Shown here: piece after piece, positions 12,152 to 18,817 of the stretch
Layout of the letters: each line of letters opens with the position of its first letter
How positions within the stretch are numbered: position 1 is the first letter of the stretch
IMG/VR virus record: IMGVR_UViG_3300025765_000001
Origin: a virus
Lineage: Duplodnaviria > Heunggongvirae > Uroviricota > Caudoviricetes
Direction: 5' to 3' (one strand)
DNA length: 64,000 bases
Notes under the pieces: model-generated
What the model was told of the DNA's origin: nothing
What the model saw: only the letters and a program-made list of their open reading frames with translations
Databases searched by the model: none
Made by a program: the position numbers and the translations under genes

Positions 12152-12240
12152 GGAAGGGATTGCAAGTGGCTATGCTACCCTGTTTGCTAAACAGGCAGGC
12201 GGCGAAAGCCGCCTTGCGGGTTCGACTCCCGCTCCTTCCG
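12152..12240 (+). tRNA. tRNA-Ser(GCT)
   Basis: Cloverleaf, CCTGT-TTGCTAA-ACAGG, long variable arm, G73. Confidence 0.9.
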
Positions 12241-12243
12241 CTT

Positions 12244-12327
12244 GGGCCTGCTACGATTGTGGGAAACGAGACTGGCTGTAAACCAGTTGCTCTATAGAGA
12301 TAAGGGGTTCGATTCCTCACAGGCCCA
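12244..12327 (+). tRNA. tRNA-Tyr(GTA)
   Basis: GGGCCTG/CAGGCCC, ACTGG-CTGTAAA-CCAGT; atypical D arm. Confidence 0.8.
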
Positions 12328-12384
12328 TTAGGTAAAGCGGCTTTATCTAGTTAAGGTAAAGCGGCGTTATCTTAGGAGATTGAG

Positions 12385-12510
12385 ATGCAATACTGTCCGG
12401 CTTGCAACAGGTTCAAGCAAGCTAAGTTCTTCGCCGCTGAGGAACATCGGTATTGCAAAACGTGTGAGAAGAAATGGAGGAAGATCAACGGGCGAGTAGT
12501 GAAGGTATAA
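12385..12510 (+). CDS. 41-aa zinc-ribbon microprotein
   Basis: RBS AGGAG; MQYCPACNRF...YCKTCEKKWRKINGRVVKV. Confidence 0.6.
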   Translation: MQYCPACNRFKQAKFFAAEEHRYCKTCEKKWRKINGRVVKV

Positions 12511-12511
12511 C

Positions 12512-12596
12512 GGAAGAGATGAAGAGCGGCTACTTCACCTAGTCTTGAAAACTAGCGGGCCGAAAGGCTCTGCGGGTTCGACGCCCGCCTCTTCCG
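12512..12596 (+). tRNA. tRNA-Ser(TGA)
   Basis: CTAGT-CTTGAAA-ACTAG, variable arm, G73. Confidence 0.9.
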
Positions 12597-12602
12597 CTCG
12601 AT

Positions 12603-12690
12603 GCCCAGGTGGTGGAACTGGTAGACACGCAAGGTTCAGAGCCTTGTACCCGTTAAGGGCGTGTGGGTTCGAGTCCCACCCTGGGCACCA
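12603..12690 (+). tRNA. tRNA-Leu(CAG)
   Basis: Canonical class II cloverleaf with encoded CCA. Confidence 0.95.
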
Positions 12691-12691
12691 T

Positions 12692-12774
12692 GCGTCAGCA
12701 TCCCATGTGGCGAGGGAAGCAGACTGTAAATCTGTGGGCTTTAGCCTGTGCAGGTTCGACTCCTGCCTGACGCA
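12692..12774 (+). tRNA. tRNA-Tyr(GTA)
   Basis: GCGTCAG/CTGACGC, GCAGA-CTGTAAA-TCTGT. Confidence 0.88.
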
Positions 12775-12786
12775 CTGGAGGTAGAG

Positions 12787-13260
12787 ATGGTTGGTATAGT
12801 AATGGGGTCCAAGTCCGATTGGGAAACCATGAAGGCTGCCGCCGACATACTAGACCAACTCGGTGTGAAGTATGAGAAGAGAGTTGTTTCTGCTCACCGC
12901 ACACCAGACCTCCTGTTCGAGTACGCCGAGACAGCGAAGGATCGAGGACTCAGAGCGATCATAGCTGGTGCTGGTGGGGCAGCCCACCTACCGGGAATGC
13001 TCGCAGCGAAGACGAAAGTTCCGGTACTTGGAGTGCCGGTCGAATCGAAAGCCTTGCGTGGAATAGATTCGTTACTGTCGATAGTGCAGATGCCGCTTGG
13101 AGTTCCTGTGGCGACGTTCGCTATAGGGCCAGCGGGTGCCGGGAACGCCGCCCTGTTTGCCGCAGAGATGTTGGCCCACAGCAACCCGGAGATCGATTAC
13201 GCACTCGACAAGTATAGAGCGGCACAGACGCAAAGAGTGCTGGACACGGAGTTGTCATAA
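12787..13260 (+). CDS. purE: N5-CAIR mutase
   Basis: [39 protein letters not shown]. Confidence 0.97.
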
Positions 13261-13332
13261 GGGACGATAGCTGAGATAGATTAGCGATTGGCTGAAAACC
13301 AGTAGAGGTTGGTGCGATACCAACTCGTCCCA
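13261..13332 (+). tRNA. tRNA-Phe(GAA)
   Basis: GGGACGA/TCGTCCC, CTGAAAA loop; T-loop TGCGATA is atypical. Confidence 0.8.
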
Positions 13333-13344
13333 CTTGTTCTAGTC

Positions 13345-13358
13345 TGATCTTTGACAAT
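13345..13358 (+). promoter_or_regulatory. rrn-type boxA antitermination element
   Basis: TGATCTTTGACAAT, close to boxA consensus TGCTCTTTAACA, in a tRNA spacer. Confidence 0.6.
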
Positions 13359-13422
13359 TTGGTAGTTTGAAGTCGCACTTTCCCACCAGCCAGTGCGTGT
13401 CTCACCATACGCACTGGCACTT

Positions 13423-13495
13423 GTGGAGGAAGCAATTGTGGTCAATGCACCGGTCTGAAAAGCCGGTTAAGTGGGTTCGATCCCCACCCTCCACA
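13423..13495 (+). tRNA. tRNA-Phe(GAA)
   Basis: GTGGAGG/CCTCCAC, CCGGT-CTGAAAA-GCCGG. Confidence 0.85.
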
Positions 13496-13502
13496 CTCCT
13501 AT

Positions 13503-13577
13503 GAGTCGGTAGCTCAGTTGGTAGTAGCGTCTGCCTGAAGAGCAGAAGGTTCGTCGGTTCGATCCCGACCCGGCCCA
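13503..13577 (+). tRNA. tRNA-Phe(GAA)
   Basis: TAGCTCAGTTGGTAG D arm, TCTGC-CTGAAGA-GCAGA; one acceptor mismatch. Confidence 0.85.
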
Positions 13578-13702
13578 CTCGGAAGGTGCAATGTCGGCTT
13601 GTAGTCACTCTGGTTTCGCTCGTGGTGATAAAAAGATCAAACGATTGGGTGACGGAGCCGAAGGAAGTTTCCATGTCGCTCGTAGCGGCTAGGAGAAGGA
13701 CA

Positions 13703-14878
13703 ATGGAAAAGGTACATGTAAACGTCGGCACCATCGGTCACATCGACCACGGTAAGACCACGTTGACGGCTGCGATCCTTGCCGTCCAAGCAGAAAAGGG
13801 TCTAGCGAAACGCAAGAGCTACAAGGACATTGCCAAGGGCGGCACCTATCGTGACGAAAATAAAACTGTCACGATCATCACGTCGCACGTCAAGTACGAG
13901 ACGCCGACGAGGGAATACGCCCACATCGACTGCCCAGGCCACGCTGATTATGTGAAGAACATGATTACCGGGGCCGCACAGATGGACGGTGCAATCCTCC
14001 TGCTCTCGGCGGTGGACGGGCCTATGCCTCAGACAAGAGAGCATATCCTGCTCGCTCGCCAAGTGGGAGTGCCAGACCTTGTAGTGTTCATCAACAAGTG
14101 CGATCTAGTTGAAGACACCGAGATCATCGATCTGGTCGAACTGGAAGCTCGTGATCTTCTGGCGAAGTACGGATTCGACGGCGAGAAGACGCCTGTAATT
14201 CGTGGCAACGCCAAGGCAGCACTCGAAAATCCAGCCGATCCAGAATGTCGGAAGTGCATCGAGCAACTGCTAGATGCTCTCGACAGCTACATCCCGAACC
14301 CGGTGCGAGCCATCGATAAGCCGTTCCTAATGCCTATCGAGGGCGTCCATAAGATCGAGGGTCGTGGCACTGTAGCGACAGGAAAGATCGAGCAAGGCGT
14401 CGTCTGCCCCAACATGAAGGTCGAGATCATCGGCCTGGGAGAGATACGGGAAACCGTAGTCATCAGTGTTGAGGCGTTCAACGAGGCCAAGGAGAAAGGC
14501 GAAGCTGGCGAGAACGTTGGCGTCTTGCTCCGAGGCGTCAAGTACGACGAGATCAAGCGTGGTCAGGTTTTGACGCAACCTAGAACGGTCAAGCCGCAGA
14601 CCAAGTTTGAGTGCGAGGTCTACGTTCTCAGCAAGGAAGAGGGCGGGCGACACACGCCGCTGTTCAGCGGCTACAAGCCGCAGTTCTTCTTCCGAACAAC
14701 GGACGTGACGGGTGAGGTTAGCTTGGATGAAGAGATTTCAATGGTGATGCCGGGAGAAAACGCCCAACTACGAGTAGAACTCGGCAAGCCAGTGGCTCTC
14801 GAAGTCGGGACTCACTTCGCTGTCCGTGAGGGCGGCAAGACAGTTGGCTCTGGTGTCATCACCAAGATGCTAGAATAG
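13703..14878 (+). CDS. tuf: elongation factor Tu
   Basis: [41 protein letters not shown]; RBS AGGAGAAGG. Confidence 0.98.
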
Positions 14879-14884
14879 AAACCC

Positions 14885-15036
14885 AGAGTCGTTTACAATG
14901 GAATAGCCTTGATCGGGCTTGCGGGAATTAACAAGGTGCCGCTCGACGCTCATTAGCGAATCGGGAGGAAATGGGGGCCTAAGAATCCTCACAACTTGGA
15001 AGGGCATGTATAGATCGCAAGCTAGTGAACGACTCT
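14885..15036 (+). ncRNA. candidate structured RNA between tuf and the Leu tRNAs
   Basis: 12-bp closing stem AGAGTCGTTTAC/GTGAACGACTCT plus GCTTGCG/CGCAAGC. Confidence 0.45.
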
Positions 15037-15038
15037 AT

Positions 15039-15113
15039 CGCCGGGTGACGGGAATAGGCATACCTCTGATACTTAAAATATCAGGCTTGTGGGTTCGAGT
15101 CCCACCCCGGCGA
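15039..15113 (+). tRNA. tRNA-Leu(TAA), short variable loop
   Basis: TGATA-CTTAAAA-TATCA, A73. Confidence 0.88.
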
Positions 15114-15120
15114 CTAGACG

Positions 15121-15168
15121 GAAGGTGCGTCCGAAAGGACTTGTGGGTGCGAATCCCACATTCACTGT
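15121..15168 (+). pseudogene. 3' half of a class II tRNA
   Basis: Variable arm GTCCGAAAGGAC and T arm GTGGG-TGCGAAT-CCCAC without a 5' half. Confidence 0.5.
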
Positions 15169-15193
15169 AGGCGTATATTTCTCCGTCTAATTT

Positions 15194-15268
15194 GTCCAGG
15201 TGACGGGAACTGGCATACCTAGATGGCTTAGAACCATCTGTTTGTGGGTTCGACTCCCACCCTGGACA
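15194..15268 (+). tRNA. tRNA-Leu(TAG), short variable loop
   Basis: GATGG-CTTAGAA-CCATC. Confidence 0.9.
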
Positions 15269-15272
15269 CTGC

Positions 15273-15356
15273 GGCCTTGTGGTGAAATTGGCAAACACGC
15301 TAGTCTCAAACACTAGTGCCCTTACGGGCTTGTGGGTTCGAGTCCCACCAAGGCCA
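15273..15356 (+). tRNA. tRNA-Leu(CAA)
   Basis: CTAGT-CTCAAAC-ACTAG, long variable arm. Confidence 0.92.
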
Positions 15357-15360
15357 CTAT

Positions 15361-15435
15361 GTTCAGGTGACGGGAACTGGCATACCTCTCAGGTCGAGAG
15401 CCTGGGGCTTGTGGGTTCGACTCCCACCCTGAACA
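15361..15435 (+). tRNA. tRNA-Leu(GAG), short variable loop, C33
   Basis: TCAGG-TCGAGAG-CCTGG; lacks invariant U33. Confidence 0.75.
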
Positions 15436-15439
15436 CTCT

Positions 15440-15514
15440 GCCGAGATGACGGGAACTGGCATACCTCTCAGCCTCAAAAGCTGGGGTTTGTGGGTTCGAC
15501 TCCCACTCTCGGCA
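15440..15514 (+). tRNA. tRNA-Leu(CAA), short variable loop
   Basis: TCAGC-CTCAAAA-GCTGG. Confidence 0.88.
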
Positions 15515-15523
15515 CTAGAAACG

Positions 15524-15550
15524 AAAAGGCCCGCCTTGCGGCGGGCCTTT
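15524..15550. terminator. bidirectional terminator
   Basis: AAAAGGCCCGCC-TTGC-GGCGGGCCTTT between convergent units; same hairpin inverted at 20861. Confidence 0.8.
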
Positions 15551-15554
15551 GGGA

Positions 15555-15899
15555 CTACTTCTTGGAAGTCCGTTTCTTCGATGTGGTTTTCTTGGCTGAC
15601 TTCTTGGAGGCCCTGGCTTCGGCCCGGCGAGCTTTGATAGCTTCGGTCCAGAGTGTGGTTTGCTCCTCCTCGTTGTCGTAGTCAACCTCGAAGCCGTGGG
15701 TGTCAACCTGATCGTTCTTGAGACCGAGCTTCTCCTGGGCGGTGTAGGCACCACCGACCCCGCCGAGTTGCCCAAGGACGCACTCGAAGTTGGATGACAT
15801 CTGCAAGTTCGCAGGCTTGACCTTGTTGGCCCAGCCCGGCCAATCCTTGTCGAGTTTGCGGATGCCCCGATTGACACGAGTTTTGATAGATTCGGCCAT
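15555..15899 (-). CDS. hypothetical protein with Lys-rich tail
   Basis: RBS AAGGAG; ends SKKSAKKTTSKKRTSKK. Confidence 0.7.
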   Translation of the reverse strand: MAESIKTRVNRGIRKLDKDWPGWANKVKPANLQMSSNFECVLGQLGGVGGAYTAQEKLGLKNDQVDTHGFEVDYDNEEEQTTLWTEAIKARRAEARASKKSAKKTTSKKRTSKK

Positions 15900-16315
15900 G
15901 ACACAACTCCTTAACATTATGGGTAAGCGAAACGAAGAGGCAGTATCACAAGAACTAGGTTTTTTGACAAGAGCAACACTACAGGCCCAACTGAAAGCCG
16001 ATAGACAGGGTTCAGCGGGCGTAGCTAACCTGCGTTGCCTGCCATGAGCGGTCGCAAGACACGTCTCTTCAGGAAGACCTACGACGAGATATGCGGGTTC
16101 GATTCCCGTCAGGTCCACTACCACGGATTGCAAAGGTAATGATCGAGTGCTTCCAGGGCTTGGCGGACTTGCCAAACCGGAACAACTGAACGGAAGGAGA
16201 TTTTCGGATCGTGCCAGTCTTGCAGATCAACGGATGCATTTGTGTCGTCCGTGACTATGCTAAGGTAGCATGATCCCATCTTTACTACCTGCATGATGCT
16301 ATATAGTAGAACCAC

Positions 16316-16404
16316 GGAAGCGATTAAGAGTGGCTACTTTACCCCGCTTGGAAAGCGGGCAGGCGGTGCAAGCCGCCTTGCGAGTTCGACTCTCGCCGCT
16401 TCCG
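16316..16404 (+). tRNA. tRNA-Ser(GGA)
   Basis: CCCGC-TTGGAAA-GCGGG, variable arm, G73. Confidence 0.9.
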
Positions 16405-16422
16405 CTCCCGAAAGAAAGGCAC

Positions 16423-16668
16423 ATGAAAGACATGAACATCATTCAGTTTCTAGCTCGCAAGGGAGCGACTGTTTCGATGTCGGAAAGCAGGCGACTCGTG
16501 GCTTGTGGTATAGTTCGTGTGAACGACCACCCTGAACCTGACATGTCCAGAGTTCTCAAAGTCGGCGATGTCGTCTCTATAGGACAAAGGAGATGGGTAT
16601 GTACCGATGCAGAAGTACAAGATTCTCCAGACAAGGACAGTGAAGGAGTTCCTATGGTTTCCCCGTAG
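16423..16668 (+). CDS. stand-alone S4-like RNA-binding domain (TyrRS C-terminal type)
   Basis: SMSESRRLVACGIVRVND...LKVGDVVSIGQRRW. Confidence 0.75.
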   Translation: MKDMNIIQFLARKGATVSMSESRRLVACGIVRVNDHPEPDMSRVLKVGDVVSIGQRRWVCTDAEVQDSPDKDSEGVPMVSP

Positions 16669-16768
16669 GGTAAAAGGCAAACTCCGCTGGCTGTGCTTCA
16701 TCGAACATTCTGAATTTTTGATCCAGGTGCGATCCACTGGCGAACGTAAATGGGTCAAATTCAAGTAA

Positions 16769-16853
16769 GGAAGAGATTGAGAGCGGCTACTCTACCTCGC
16801 CTCGAAAGCGAGCGGGCCGAAAGGCTCTGCGGGTTCGACTCCCGCCTCTTCCG
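16769..16853 (+). tRNA. tRNA-Ser(CGA)
   Basis: CTCGC-CTCGAAA-GCGAG, variable arm, G73. Confidence 0.9.
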
Positions 16854-16917
16854 CTTTTGACCACGCCTCAAACGTGAGCTATGCTTTTCTGTGGACTAAC
16901 TCAGGGGAGCAAGAAGC

Positions 16918-17211
16918 ATGAAGGTCGTGTGTGCGTGGTGCCAGGAGCGGATGCCCGACAAGGAGCCGCTTGAAGACGAAACGATTTCGCATGGGCTGTG
17001 TGGTCCATGCATGGCGGTGGTGCTGGAAGAATCGTGTTTACAATCGACCCCGAAGACACTAGAATGCCGGGGTCTTGATGCAGAAAGAGTCGTTCAGTTG
17101 CCAAGCGGAGTAGGAAATTCAGATGAGACAACCGCCGTTCGGAATGCCCCCCTGGATGATGGGTCCGTGGATGATGGGGCAGGACCAGCAGCACCAGCAA
17201 TATACTCCTGA
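16918..17211 (+). CDS. small Zn-binding hypothetical protein
   Basis: CAWC..SHGLCGPC. Confidence 0.55.
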   Translation: MKVVCAWCQERMPDKEPLEDETISHGLCGPCMAVVLEESCLQSTPKTLECRGLDAERVVQLPSGVGNSDETTAVRNAPLDDGSVDDGAGPAAPAIYS

Positions 17212-17230
17212 CCTCATCGTTCCAGCCAGA

Positions 17231-17680
17231 GTGCCTTCCGAGAATCCAGTTTTGAAAATTGGCGAAGGTTCCTCGAACCTGTACTAAGGAACCTAAATAG
17301 GTAAACCTCACAGCTTCGGCAGTGGGACAATGCTCACGAGATGAAGACCCAGAAGGAACCGTAGAGGGTGGAAGTCCCGTAGTCGCCGACATGTTGTAAT
17401 AGACGTAGACTGAACTGTTCCTCTGGTCGGAAATCAGGGGCGTGTGGGAGACGCTGAAAGCACCATTGTTTGGCAGATAATCTAAGCGTCAGTTGTACCA
17501 CGGTTGATGATCGGTCGGATGGTGCACAGGGCTTCGGCCTATGCATGTGTCATCAGCGTGAGGGCTAACCGACAAACTCTGGACAAGGCCATATCCAACG
17601 GCGTGCCTGTTCGGTAGCCGTATGGACCGGGATGCAGGGGAGGGGTGTTGCCCGATACAGAACCTCAGAGAAGGGCCGGT
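17231..17680 (+). ncRNA. candidate large structured ncRNA (RNA-A)
   Basis: ~450 nt with no credible ORF and many hairpins, including two UUCG loops. Confidence 0.55.
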
Positions 17681-17704
17681 TAGCATTTTTGTACCAGGAG
17701 AACG

Positions 17705-17956
17705 ATGATTTCAGACAACGGATTCCCTCGTCGGTGCCGAATTGATCTGATGACTCCAGCCGAACTTGTAATCCGCAGAGCAACCAGGGAAAAGACACTC
17801 AATCGTGAAGTTGGGGAATTGAAAAATTCTGCTTCTCTGAAAGATCAAATTTGCGGATTACTGATGGATATGCATATTGGGTCAAGTGGTATGCACAGGC
17901 CAGCAGTGGAGGCAAAGTCGGTGGCTATCCTCGAACTAGTCAATGAATCGGCGTGA
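17705..17956 (+). CDS. hypothetical protein
   Basis: RBS AGGAG; short ORF. Confidence 0.45.
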   Translation: MISDNGFPRRCRIDLMTPAELVIRRATREKTLNREVGELKNSASLKDQICGLLMDMHIGSSGMHRPAVEAKSVAILELVNESA

Positions 17957-17983
17957 CCGTCTAATAAATGGACGCTTTTCGTA

Positions 17984-18068
17984 GCCCAGGTGGTGAAATG
18001 GCAGACATGCAAGGCTCAGAACCTTGTGCCAGTTAAACGGCGTGTCGGTTCGAGTCCGGCCGTGGGCA
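17984..18068 (+). tRNA. tRNA-Leu(CAG)
   Basis: CAAGG-CTCAGAA-CCTTG; one acceptor mismatch. Confidence 0.85.
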
Positions 18069-18108
18069 CTTAGGCCCTCTGGGGGTAGACCCTTGGGAGA
18101 CCTCCCTT

Positions 18109-18260
18109 CGATGTTAAGCAGAGACAGCCAGGATGTTGGCTTAGGAGCAGTCATCATATAATGAATGAGTTGGACAATGCCGCCAAAGGCAGGGAAGTCG
18201 GCTACGGCACCTTCCCATTTAGGCGTAATAGCACACTGGCCGAGCTAGTCGAGCCTAACG
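18109..18260 (+). ncRNA. 23S rRNA GTPase-associated centre (H42-H44) mimic RNA
   Basis: AGACAGCCAGGATGTTGGCTTAGGAGCAGTCATCATATAATGAA ... GCGTAATAGCACACTGGCCGAG matches 23S nt ~1045-1112, with a ~57-nt insertion. Confidence 0.85.
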
Positions 18261-18291
18261 CCGGGTGTGTACACACCCGGCGTTATTTTTT
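18256..18291 (+). terminator. intrinsic terminator
   Basis: TAACGCCGGGTGT/ACACCCGGCGTTA plus T6. Confidence 0.88.
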
Positions 18292-18478: not shown

Positions 18479-18817
18479 ATGGCAACGACAGCAGATACTC
18501 AATCTAGATATACTCCTGACTGCGGGAAAGTGCCTGTCGGCGAGAAAGTTACCTGTGGTGTTTGCGGGGCCGTGATGAACGAACGTCGCAACGTCAGCGG
18601 CCCTCGTAGTTGGGCACAAGCGATCAGCCGTGGTAGCTCACCGCATGACGTGTTCGAGTGTCCGCACATGAACGAGGACTGGCACAAACAAGTCGTAGCG
18701 TTGCGTCGGAAAGCTAGAAACTCTGTCAGCAAGAAACTAGCCGATATGATGCTACAAGAAGCGGACGAAATTCTGTCTAGCAAAACGGCAACGAAGAAGA
18801 TATACTTCCACATATGA
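18479..18817 (+). CDS. hypothetical Zn-binding protein
   Basis: RBS AGGAGG; CGVC...CP..WH. Confidence 0.65.
   Translation: MATTADTQSRYTPDCGKVPVGEKVTCGVCGAVMNERRNVSGPRSWAQAISRGSSPHDVFECPHMNEDWHKQVVALRRKARNSVSKKLADMMLQEADEILSSKTATKKIYFHI

Follow-up and report, generated by a model that had tools for sequence, protein, structure and literature searches.

A free-standing copy of the GTPase-associated centre (GAC) of the bacterial 23S ribosomal RNA (rRNA) was found in the genome of an uncultured phage. It occupies positions 18117-18246 (+) of the stretch of DNA analysed here (64,000 nt, referred to as the window), which makes up the first 64 kb of an IMG/VR virus record of 436 kb (IMGVR_UViG_3300025765_000001). 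The GAC comprises the 23S rRNA helices H42-H44 and is the docking site of ribosomal protein uL11, the stalk, EF-G, the complex of EF-Tu with transfer RNA (tRNA), RelA and thiopeptide antibiotics. The phage element is homologous to this domain, belongs to a phage RNA family with hallmarks of its own, is under selection for its fold and is located in an island of tRNA genes together with a gene for EF-Tu. We are highly confident that it is a functional structured RNA of this phage family. Its role could be that of a decoy for uL11, and this proposal is weighed below against several alternatives.

An isolated H42-H44 domain in a phage genome

Infernal aligned 18117-18246(+) to positions 1082-1155 of the Rfam model for the bacterial large subunit (LSU) rRNA, LSU_rRNA_bacteria (RF02541), which correspond to H42-H44. 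The score was 33.9 bits (E 1.3e-8) in a local search of 601 nt and 39.5 bits (E 3.1e-11) when the whole 436-kb record was searched, and the element was the sole LSU-like piece in this record. A bacterial 23S rRNA gene should give a full-length match with at least the gathering score of 50 bits; here only 74 of the 2925 model positions are matched, and therefore a score under this threshold is expected. A preliminary description of the window, made from the letters alone, had postulated a stand-alone mimic of H42-H44 with only this domain present and had proposed a search with the LSU model. The sequence it quoted for 18109-18291 is indeed found there, and since the match is limited to model positions 1082-1155 and is single across the 436 kb, both parts of the claim are in agreement with our data. 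The E. coli 23S string given in the description also agrees with locus L024, an E. coli-type 23S rRNA. Across E. coli positions 1045-1112, 60 of 68 bases (88%) of the phage element are identical to L024, with 40 of 46 in the first part (1045-1090) and 20 of 22 in the second (1091-1112). E. coli numbering is used from here on; in this register 1051-1090 correspond to 18127-18166 and 1091-1112 to 18223-18244.

All three helices of the domain can be recognised. The 5' strand of H42 (18117-18131) consists of AGC, the loop AGAGACA (18120-26) and the top stem GCCAG (1051-1055), while its 3' strand (18235-18246) contains A1103, CUGGC (1104-1108), the loop CGA and GCU. Thus, the top stem 1051-1055/1104-1108 is formed by GCCAG/CUGGC at 18127-31/18236-40, and in the rRNA-like register AGC (18117-19) pairs with GCU (18244-46). 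H43 with the A1067 loop (1057-1081; 18133-18157) contains the stems 1057-1059/1079-1081 and 1062-1064/1074-1076 and the loop 1065-1073, and all six pairs form. It carries two variants, A1069G and C1075U, the latter leaving a G1063-U1075 wobble. The following segment (18158-18166) is composed of the junction 1082-1086, with an A1082-U1086 pair, A1084 and A1085, and of the H44 5' strand G1087, A1088, A1089 and U1090. A 4-nt AUGA repeat at this site allows an alternative register, in which the H44 5' strand is either GAAU or GAGU (18167-70). The H44 hairpin GC-GUAAUA-GC (18223-18232; 1091-1100) has the pairs 1091-1092/1099-1100 and the loop G1093-A1098 including A1095, and it is followed by A1101 and C1102 (up to 18234). 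Further, the residues needed for the tertiary contacts of the GAC are all present in the window, namely U1060-A1088, 1082-1086, G1071, C1072 and A1084/A1085. In the ribosome, the U1060-A1088 pair is contacted by Gly130-Thr131 of uL11 (PMC2175356), and A1084 and A1085 make junction triples with the pairs 1054-1105 and 1055-1104 (PMC1919483).

The domain is interrupted by an insert in the H44 5' strand, between 1090 and 1091 (18167-18222). Its length is 56 nt in our register and 62 nt by the count of Infernal, close to the 57 nt estimated previously. As the preliminary description had noticed, the insert contains two hairpins, both of which are present in the unconstrained fold: UGCC-GCCAAA-GGCA at 18178-18191 and GGGAAG...CUUCCC at 18192-18216, followed by AUUUAG. 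The helix TGTTAAGC/GCCTAACG, by which the element had been suggested to be closed, was only partly right: in the rRNA-like register AGC/GCU takes this place, while an outer helix between GUUA (18113-18116, +) and UAAC (18256-18259) is possible and appears in both the free and the constrained folds. These four bases of the outer helix are shared with the foot of an intrinsic terminator (18256-18291, +), which was predicted earlier and is real by its pattern: a 13-bp stem with eight G-C pairs (18256-18285), a 4-nt loop and TTTTTT.

The phage RNA family and the constraint on its fold

To the description of a single element we add that it belongs to a very large family of phage RNAs, which had been missed. 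A scan of IMG/VR with the H43 loop gave 24 loci, of which one is a true 23S rRNA and the rest are isolated GAC halves split by variable inserts. A looser 5' pattern and a pattern for the 3' half gave at least 118 loci each, from which 61-67 (5'-pattern set) and 108 (3'-half set) distinct elements were extracted. The family counts are lower bounds, and all tallies per position refer to the matches listed; collection by pattern biases the positions of the pattern itself, and only positions that are free or were collected by the complementary pattern are reported. More than 100 distinct isolated GAC copies with common hallmarks are found among the IMG/VR matches, and others in cultured phages, which is the result of the search of phage genomes that the preliminary description had recommended.

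Three hallmarks distinguish the family. The first is an insertion of about 45-350 nt between U1090 and G1091, represented in the window by the 56-nt insert. Another is A1101, which is U in rRNA and is found in all 60 listed elements as well as in the window. The third is UUUG in front of G1091, with U, U, U and G in 60, 60, 56 and 57 of the 60 elements, respectively; the window has UUUA (AUUUAG) at this site, and a final A instead of G occurs in 3 of the 60. The two H43 variants of the window are rare, each being present in 1 of 60 elements, and in 4 (A1069G) and 2 (C1075U) of the 108 in the 3'-half set. According to a previous study, position 1069 does not contribute to the fold of the rRNA domain (PMC6239185). 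Using nhmmer with half-profiles built without the window element or its closest relative, we obtained a single locus in the 436 kb, with matches at 18129-18164 (E 3e-7) and 18222-18238 (E 1.2e-3) in the correct order and on the correct strand; no other match was significant.

Selection on the fold is evident from covariation. In 25 seed sequences 85% of the cells pair, against 64% in shuffled controls, and 171 double-sided changes were counted, against 65 in shuffles; none of 500 shuffles reached 171, and slid controls collapsed. On a larger scale, anchored tallies were made on 67 distinct elements. Between 62 and 67 of them form the pairs 1051-1055/1104-1108, and as many as six standard pair types are seen at a single position. 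For pair 1058-1080, UA was counted in 38, GC in 19 and AU in 7 elements, and pair 1082-1086, which is A-U in the window, is UA in 35, CG in 21 and AU in 8. The 3'-half set leaves H43 largely free of ascertainment by the pattern, and in this set U1060, G1063, G1071 and C1072 are each conserved in 108 of 108 elements and A1088 and G1089 in 85 of 85. In contrast, the exposed loop bases vary: A1067 is found in 95, G1068 in 89 and A1070 in 88 of the 108 elements, and position 1061 varies freely. Because the residues that build the fold are invariant while the exposed loop bases vary, the constraint on the fold is stronger than that on the factor-facing bases. A1095 is nevertheless kept in all elements in which it is freely readable, and A1067 in 88%. 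A constraint of this kind would fit a partner that reads the fold, such as the C-terminal domain of uL11. In rRNA, A1070 is invariant (PMC6239185).

Unannotated members are present in many cultured phages, among them jumbo phages such as GAP32, CBB and Serratia BF. They were found in Cronobacter phage GAP32 (JN882285, 289509-289764), the Xanthomonas phages XbC2 and XaC1, Pectobacterium phage CBB, Serratia phage BF, six Erwinia pEa_SNUABM phages, the Yersinia phages fHe-Yen9-03 and fHe-Yen9-04, Erwinia phage Kaldavass and, upon inspection of the sequence, Pseudomonas phage pf16 (158 kb), where the element is flanked by the genes for tRNA-Asn and tRNA-Pro. For the Pseudomonas phages UNO-G1W1 and Milchi and for Aeromonas phage 4_4572, matches at the level of BLAST only were obtained. 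In the GAP32-type phages the whole 256 nt, insert included, are 82-90% conserved. True rRNA contaminants also occur in the phage sets of IMG/VR and GenBank (L024, L121 and L123). One of them, a match in Paenibacillus phage Pd_22F (L123; MZ092003, approximately 83.9-84.1 kb), turned out on inspection to be a true 23S sequence and was not counted as a member; it is located near one end of the record in an unannotated region and is probably host DNA or a prophage border. Matches in Listeria, Staphylococcus and Salmonella phage records were set aside as host rRNA contaminants, because these records are short and unannotated or the matches are annotated as 23S.

The preferred neighbours of the family are tRNA genes. 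A tRNA gene lies within 150 nt of 28 of the 61 listed distinct elements, in all 28 cases on the element's own strand and in many of them separated by just 0-10 nt; for 39 of the 61, one is located within 1 kb. When Rfam 15 was applied to 13 family loci, only tRNAs and one group I intron were detected, and for the window element the LSU fragment was the sole non-tRNA match. Neither GOLLD nor ROOL RNAs were found with their Rfam models at the gathering threshold in the window or at the 13 loci, and an Rfam E-value scan of these loci gave no LSU region besides 1084-1153. A copy of the sarcin-ricin loop was considered as a further feature of the family and was rejected, as only one weak match was obtained among 61 inserts and none in the window. 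Clustering of the open reading frames (ORFs) within 4 kb of 65 elements yielded clade-local synteny only, without a conserved neighbouring protein gene.

Several features of the variable parts are worth mentioning. A second insertion site exists in H43, between 1077/1078 and 1079, where 13 of 67 elements have 20-91 extra nt (for example L132:15866-15895 and L163:17130-17220). Approximately 20 of 61 inserts contain the motif GGUAAGG, which is located about 22 nt upstream of G1091 and some 48 nt from the 3' end of the extracted element (for example in L032, L002, L063 and L125, the latter being phage pf16), often along with GCGAAG(C/U)AC close to the insert's 5' end. Thus, one subfamily seems to have a conserved domain in its insert. 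The insert of the window does not contain the motif.

The EF-Tu clade and the tRNA island

With the window, the family gains a clade that links the element to EF-Tu and to tRNAs for Ser, Leu, Tyr and Phe, keeps the H42 internal loop and shows a covarying base triple. Directly upstream of the element and on the same strand lies a gene for tRNA-Leu(CAG) (17984-18069, +; ARAGORN, and 45.5 bits with the Rfam tRNA model). The two are separated by a gap of 44 nt with a small GGGAG/CUCCC-type hairpin in the spacer (18070-18112, +), and they are probably co-transcribed. The phage EF-Tu gene (13586-14878, +; Pfam GTP_EFTU, D2 and D3) is located 3.2 kb upstream in the same tRNA island. The assignment of the element to a tRNA/EF-Tu locus with a terminator at its end, made in the preliminary description, was therefore correct. 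Genes for an AIR carboxylase (purE; 12748-13260) and for a small S4-domain protein (16330-16668) are interleaved with the tRNA genes.

A search with EF-Tu revealed 37 related viral loci. In six of them the EF-Tu is 73-74% identical to that of the window (L131, L132, which is the L005 contig, L134, L135, L136 and L163), and in all six an orthologue of the GAC element follows on the EF-Tu strand, 5.3-7.1 kb from the start of the EF-Tu gene. In the more distant EF-Tu loci (identity of 70% or less) no element was found within 10 kb. Throughout this clade of huge phages, EF-Tu is accompanied by tRNAs for Ser, Leu, Tyr and Phe only (12152-18069 in the window; L131, L132, L134, L136 and L163). L136 has in addition a tRNA with a CUA anticodon, labelled 'Pyl' by ARAGORN. 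ORF statistics gave no signal of stop-codon recoding, which could have been a link to uL11-dependent termination.

The cores of the clade orthologues are nearly identical, while their inserts are unrelated in sequence. The H42 internal loop AGA(C/U)A...(C/U)GA is present in six of six orthologues, whereas the rest of the family has a plain helix at this site. In L136 (16926-17046) both cytosines of this loop are replaced by U (AGAUA...UGA instead of AGACA...CGA), a correlated change which, judged from the sequence, hints at a non-canonical contact between the loop positions. Further, in L134 and L135 the bases C1072, C1092 and G1099 are jointly changed to U, U and A. In work by Conn, Gutell and Draper from 1998, C1072-(C1092-G1099) was reportedly recognised as a base triple of the GAC, with U-(U-A) as a natural, functional alternative. 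The joint change provides direct evidence for maintenance of the tertiary structure. The preliminary description had argued for selection rather than debris from the insert hairpins, and this view is now supported by the covariation in the family, by the syntenic orthologues with conserved core and diverged inserts, and by the covarying triple.

Possible role as a free stalk base

Based on these observations, we propose the following model. The element would give rise to a stable non-coding RNA some 150-180 nt long and is probably the final unit to be transcribed in the tRNA/EF-Tu island, behind tRNA-Leu(CAG). The RNA would be freed from the tRNA transcript, and its 3' end would be set by the intrinsic terminator of the element. 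The two ends of the RNA would come together in a closed copy of the GAC, with the H42 top and its internal loop, H43, H44 and the residues of the tertiary fold, from which the two-hairpin insertion would emerge at the H44 5' strand. Such an RNA would act in trans and off the ribosome and would fold autonomously like the 58-nt rRNA fragment. It is predicted to bind host uL11, whose C-terminal domain reads this fold through the U1060-A1088 pair; in the EF-Tu clade, the retained H42 loop may also bind uL10(bL12)n. As a free 'stalk base', the RNA would rival the ribosomes in binding uL11 or ligands of the site and would alter signalling by, or the vulnerability of, host ribosomes in infection, for example by less uL11-dependent activation of RelA. 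Loss of uL11 from ribosomes is known to blunt RelA activation (the relC phenotype). The GAC domain of rRNA folds autonomously, and binding of uL11 needs its tertiary fold (PMC6239185); L11 of E. coli also accepts the domain from yeast (PMC2175356). No gene for uL11, uL10 or bL12 was found in the phage genome, and since there is also no conserved neighbour gene, the partner should be a host component. Most family members lack the rRNA-like H42 internal loop, and therefore uL10 is unlikely to be the common partner.

That the element is a free copy of the uL11-binding stalk base which acts as a decoy is our leading candidate, although we consider it slightly less likely than not. Even more tentatively, it is tempting to speculate that a gene dedicated to a free stalk base is present in diverse lineages of large phages and that this stalk base together with host uL11 would make up a 'ribosome-in-pieces' particle intercepting whatever reads the site, such as RelA/tRNA, translational GTPases or an rRNA-directed immune effector; in the EF-Tu clade, uL10(bL12)n may join this particle by way of the H42 loop. 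Several points speak against the proposed role. The minimum free energy fold of the element does not have the GAC architecture, with -41.7 kcal/mol compared to -32.1 kcal/mol for the GAC-type fold in the nearest-neighbour model; the rRNA fragment is likewise not favoured by secondary-structure energy and needs Mg2+ and tertiary contacts. The combination of the two rare changes A1069G and C1075U with the 4-nt duplication in the 1082-1090 segment could mean that the copy in the window is a weakened member. The insertion in H44, and that at 1078 in 13 of 67 members, could clash with uL11, and the gain from titrating an abundant ribosomal protein is not obvious. Moreover, the conservation of A1095 and, nearly, of A1067 fits a role in binding of a factor or toxin as well.

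The last point leads to the possibility that the RNA is a decoy or pseudo-substrate for a host weapon directed at the GAC (an RNase, an ADP-ribosyltransferase or a methyltransferase) and thereby spares the ribosomes, in parallel to phage tRNAs which replace tRNAs hit by nucleases. This would suit the location within tRNA arrays, which are 'spare-parts' loci of phages, as well as the retention of A1095 and A1067. The type VI secretion system toxin Tre23 ADP-ribosylates H44 of the GAC. A precedent from antiphage defence is the HEPN RNase AbiV, an rRNA-degrading enzyme for which a small RNA acts as inhibitor (bioRxiv 10.1101/2024.05.05.592566). However, a stoichiometric decoy is weak against a catalytic toxin unless binding is very tight, and the very different hosts of these phages would require a widespread target enzyme. 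We also know of no defence system that targets H43/H44 in phage infection, and consider this explanation unlikely. Quite unlikely, in our opinion, is that the GAC copy, with or without uL11, serves as a platform which binds EF-G, the ternary complex of phage EF-Tu or tRNA elbows and so modulates the availability of factors or the handling of tRNA. The constant linkage to phage EF-Tu and to the Ser/Leu/Tyr/Phe tRNA set in the clade is in line with it. Munishkin and Wool reportedly described in 1997 that EF-G binds isolated GAC oligonucleotides, and A1067 is said to stack on the elbow of the A/T-state tRNA (Schmeing, 2009). On the other hand, most family members are in phages without a nearby EF-Tu gene, the EF-Tu relatives of at most 70% identity lack a nearby element, A1067 and A1070, which are factor-facing or invariant in rRNA, vary in 12-19% of the members, and the inserts do not supply a sarcin-ricin loop.

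The variable insertions could instead be the working parts, with the GAC fold serving as a stable, compact, nuclease-resistant and protein-coated chassis. Two constant insertion sites with inserts ranging from about 45 to 350 nt, the uniform spacing between GGUAAGG and the 3' half in about a third of the inserts and the conservation of the GAP32-type elements over their inserts would be explained in this way; the unrelated inserts next to nearly invariant cores in the clade of the window would not. The insert of the window is among the shortest and lacks any shared insert motif, and conservation extends to residues the fold can do without, A1095 among them, so that we regard a mere chassis as improbable. 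The two remaining explanations are contradicted by the genomic context and by the conservation. According to one of them, which by analogy to the leaders of ribosomal protein mRNAs would be a cis-acting leader or attenuator, the element would control the ORF that starts at 18480. The rplJ leader is the textbook example of an mRNA leader that mimics rRNA, the ORF in question has a good ribosome-binding site and follows 190 nt downstream, and three insert-less GAC copies in other viral contigs (see below) sit right before a small ORF. Nevertheless, a leader function is very improbable, as a full terminator, of which only the four A-U foot pairs overlap the element, separates it from the ORF, the neighbours in the family are tRNA genes and not a conserved ORF, and neither uL10, uL11 or bL12 genes nor a match to L10_leader (RF00557) are present in the genome. 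The other explanation, namely rRNA captured from a host and left as neutral debris, or a chimera of the assembly, could appeal to the 88% identity to real 23S over 68 nt and to the existence of true rRNA contaminants in the phage sets. It is hardly compatible with phage sequence on both flanks of a match of only 74 model positions, with hallmarks that rRNA does not have, with six independently assembled orthologues at the syntenic place or with the covariation of helices and base triple. In addition, the A1069G/C1075U variant of H43 is in no 23S context of the 185,579 GTDB species representatives, all four matches being due to chance and outside rRNA; this argument is weak, as many metagenome-assembled genomes are without rRNA. 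We thus consider debris or a chimera the least credible of the explanations.

A decoy that imitates the stalk base would have both parallels and differences to known systems. With the GAC of 23S rRNA (H42-H44; the 58-nt uL11/thiostrepton fragment is E. coli 1051-1108) the phage element shares homology, the same helices and the tertiary residues, that is U1060-A1088, 1082-1086, G1071 and C1072 with the H44 pairs, and A1084/A1085 with 1054-1105 and 1055-1104, in addition to A1067 and A1095. Unlike the GAC, it lies outside rRNA among tRNA genes, is closed by its own H42, contains the insertion at 1090/1091 and A1101 in place of U, and belongs to a family in which the exposed loop bases are less constrained than in rRNA. 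Like the rplJ/L10 leader (RF00557), it is an extra-ribosomal RNA that imitates the site of a ribosomal protein of the stalk region. The ribosomal protein leaders, however, are cis-acting parts of mRNAs and mimic the site only in structure, whereas the phage element is a free-standing gene, truly homologous to rRNA, followed by a terminator and present in a genome without genes for uL10, uL11 or bL12. The proposed logic, in which an abundant RNA imitates a ligand and titrates a protein, is that of 6S RNA (a mimic of open promoter DNA), of CsrB/RsmZ, which titrate CsrA, and of the type III antitoxin RNAs ToxI and abiV2. There is no relation to these RNAs in sequence or structure, the imitated object is here a ribosomal domain, and the partner is putative. 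Finally, GOLLD and ROOL are also structured non-coding phage RNAs beside tRNA genes, but the element is much smaller and has a core that is recognisably an rRNA domain.

As far as searches of Rfam 15 and of full-text literature show, neither the family nor any other stand-alone gene for an rRNA domain has been described, and known mimicry of rRNA is limited to the cis-acting leaders of ribosomal protein mRNAs. Here a whole, autonomously folding ribosomal centre has been copied into phages, is selected for its three-dimensional fold and is spread in many large phages. If uL11 or a factor binding to the GAC is titrated, this would represent a new layer of the conflict between virus and host over translation or the stringent response, and the RNA would be a natural compact tool for the GAC site. 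If the 'ribosome-in-pieces' reading is true, it would reveal an unrecognised viral means to manipulate or protect the translation machinery. The idea is directly testable, because the 58-nt fragment ranks with the RNAs whose biochemistry has been studied best and carriers exist among cultured phages of Cronobacter, Pectobacterium, Serratia, Erwinia, Yersinia and Pseudomonas.

Last but not least, GAC-like sequences without the hallmarks of the family were encountered in three small viral contigs of 15-42 kb (L011:4340-4420(-), L021:1752-1826(+) and L023:3118-3195(+)). These copies are insert-less and of the rRNA type, with U1101 and the AGACA loop, and each is directly followed by a hairpin, a GAGGUGA ribosome-binding site and a short hydrophobic ORF. 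They are a different, leader-like use of the GAC domain. In another tRNA-rich phage locus (L008:5015-5109(-)), a sub-threshold match to the Y RNA-like YrlA (36 bits, E 2e-4) was detected approximately 1 kb from a family element.

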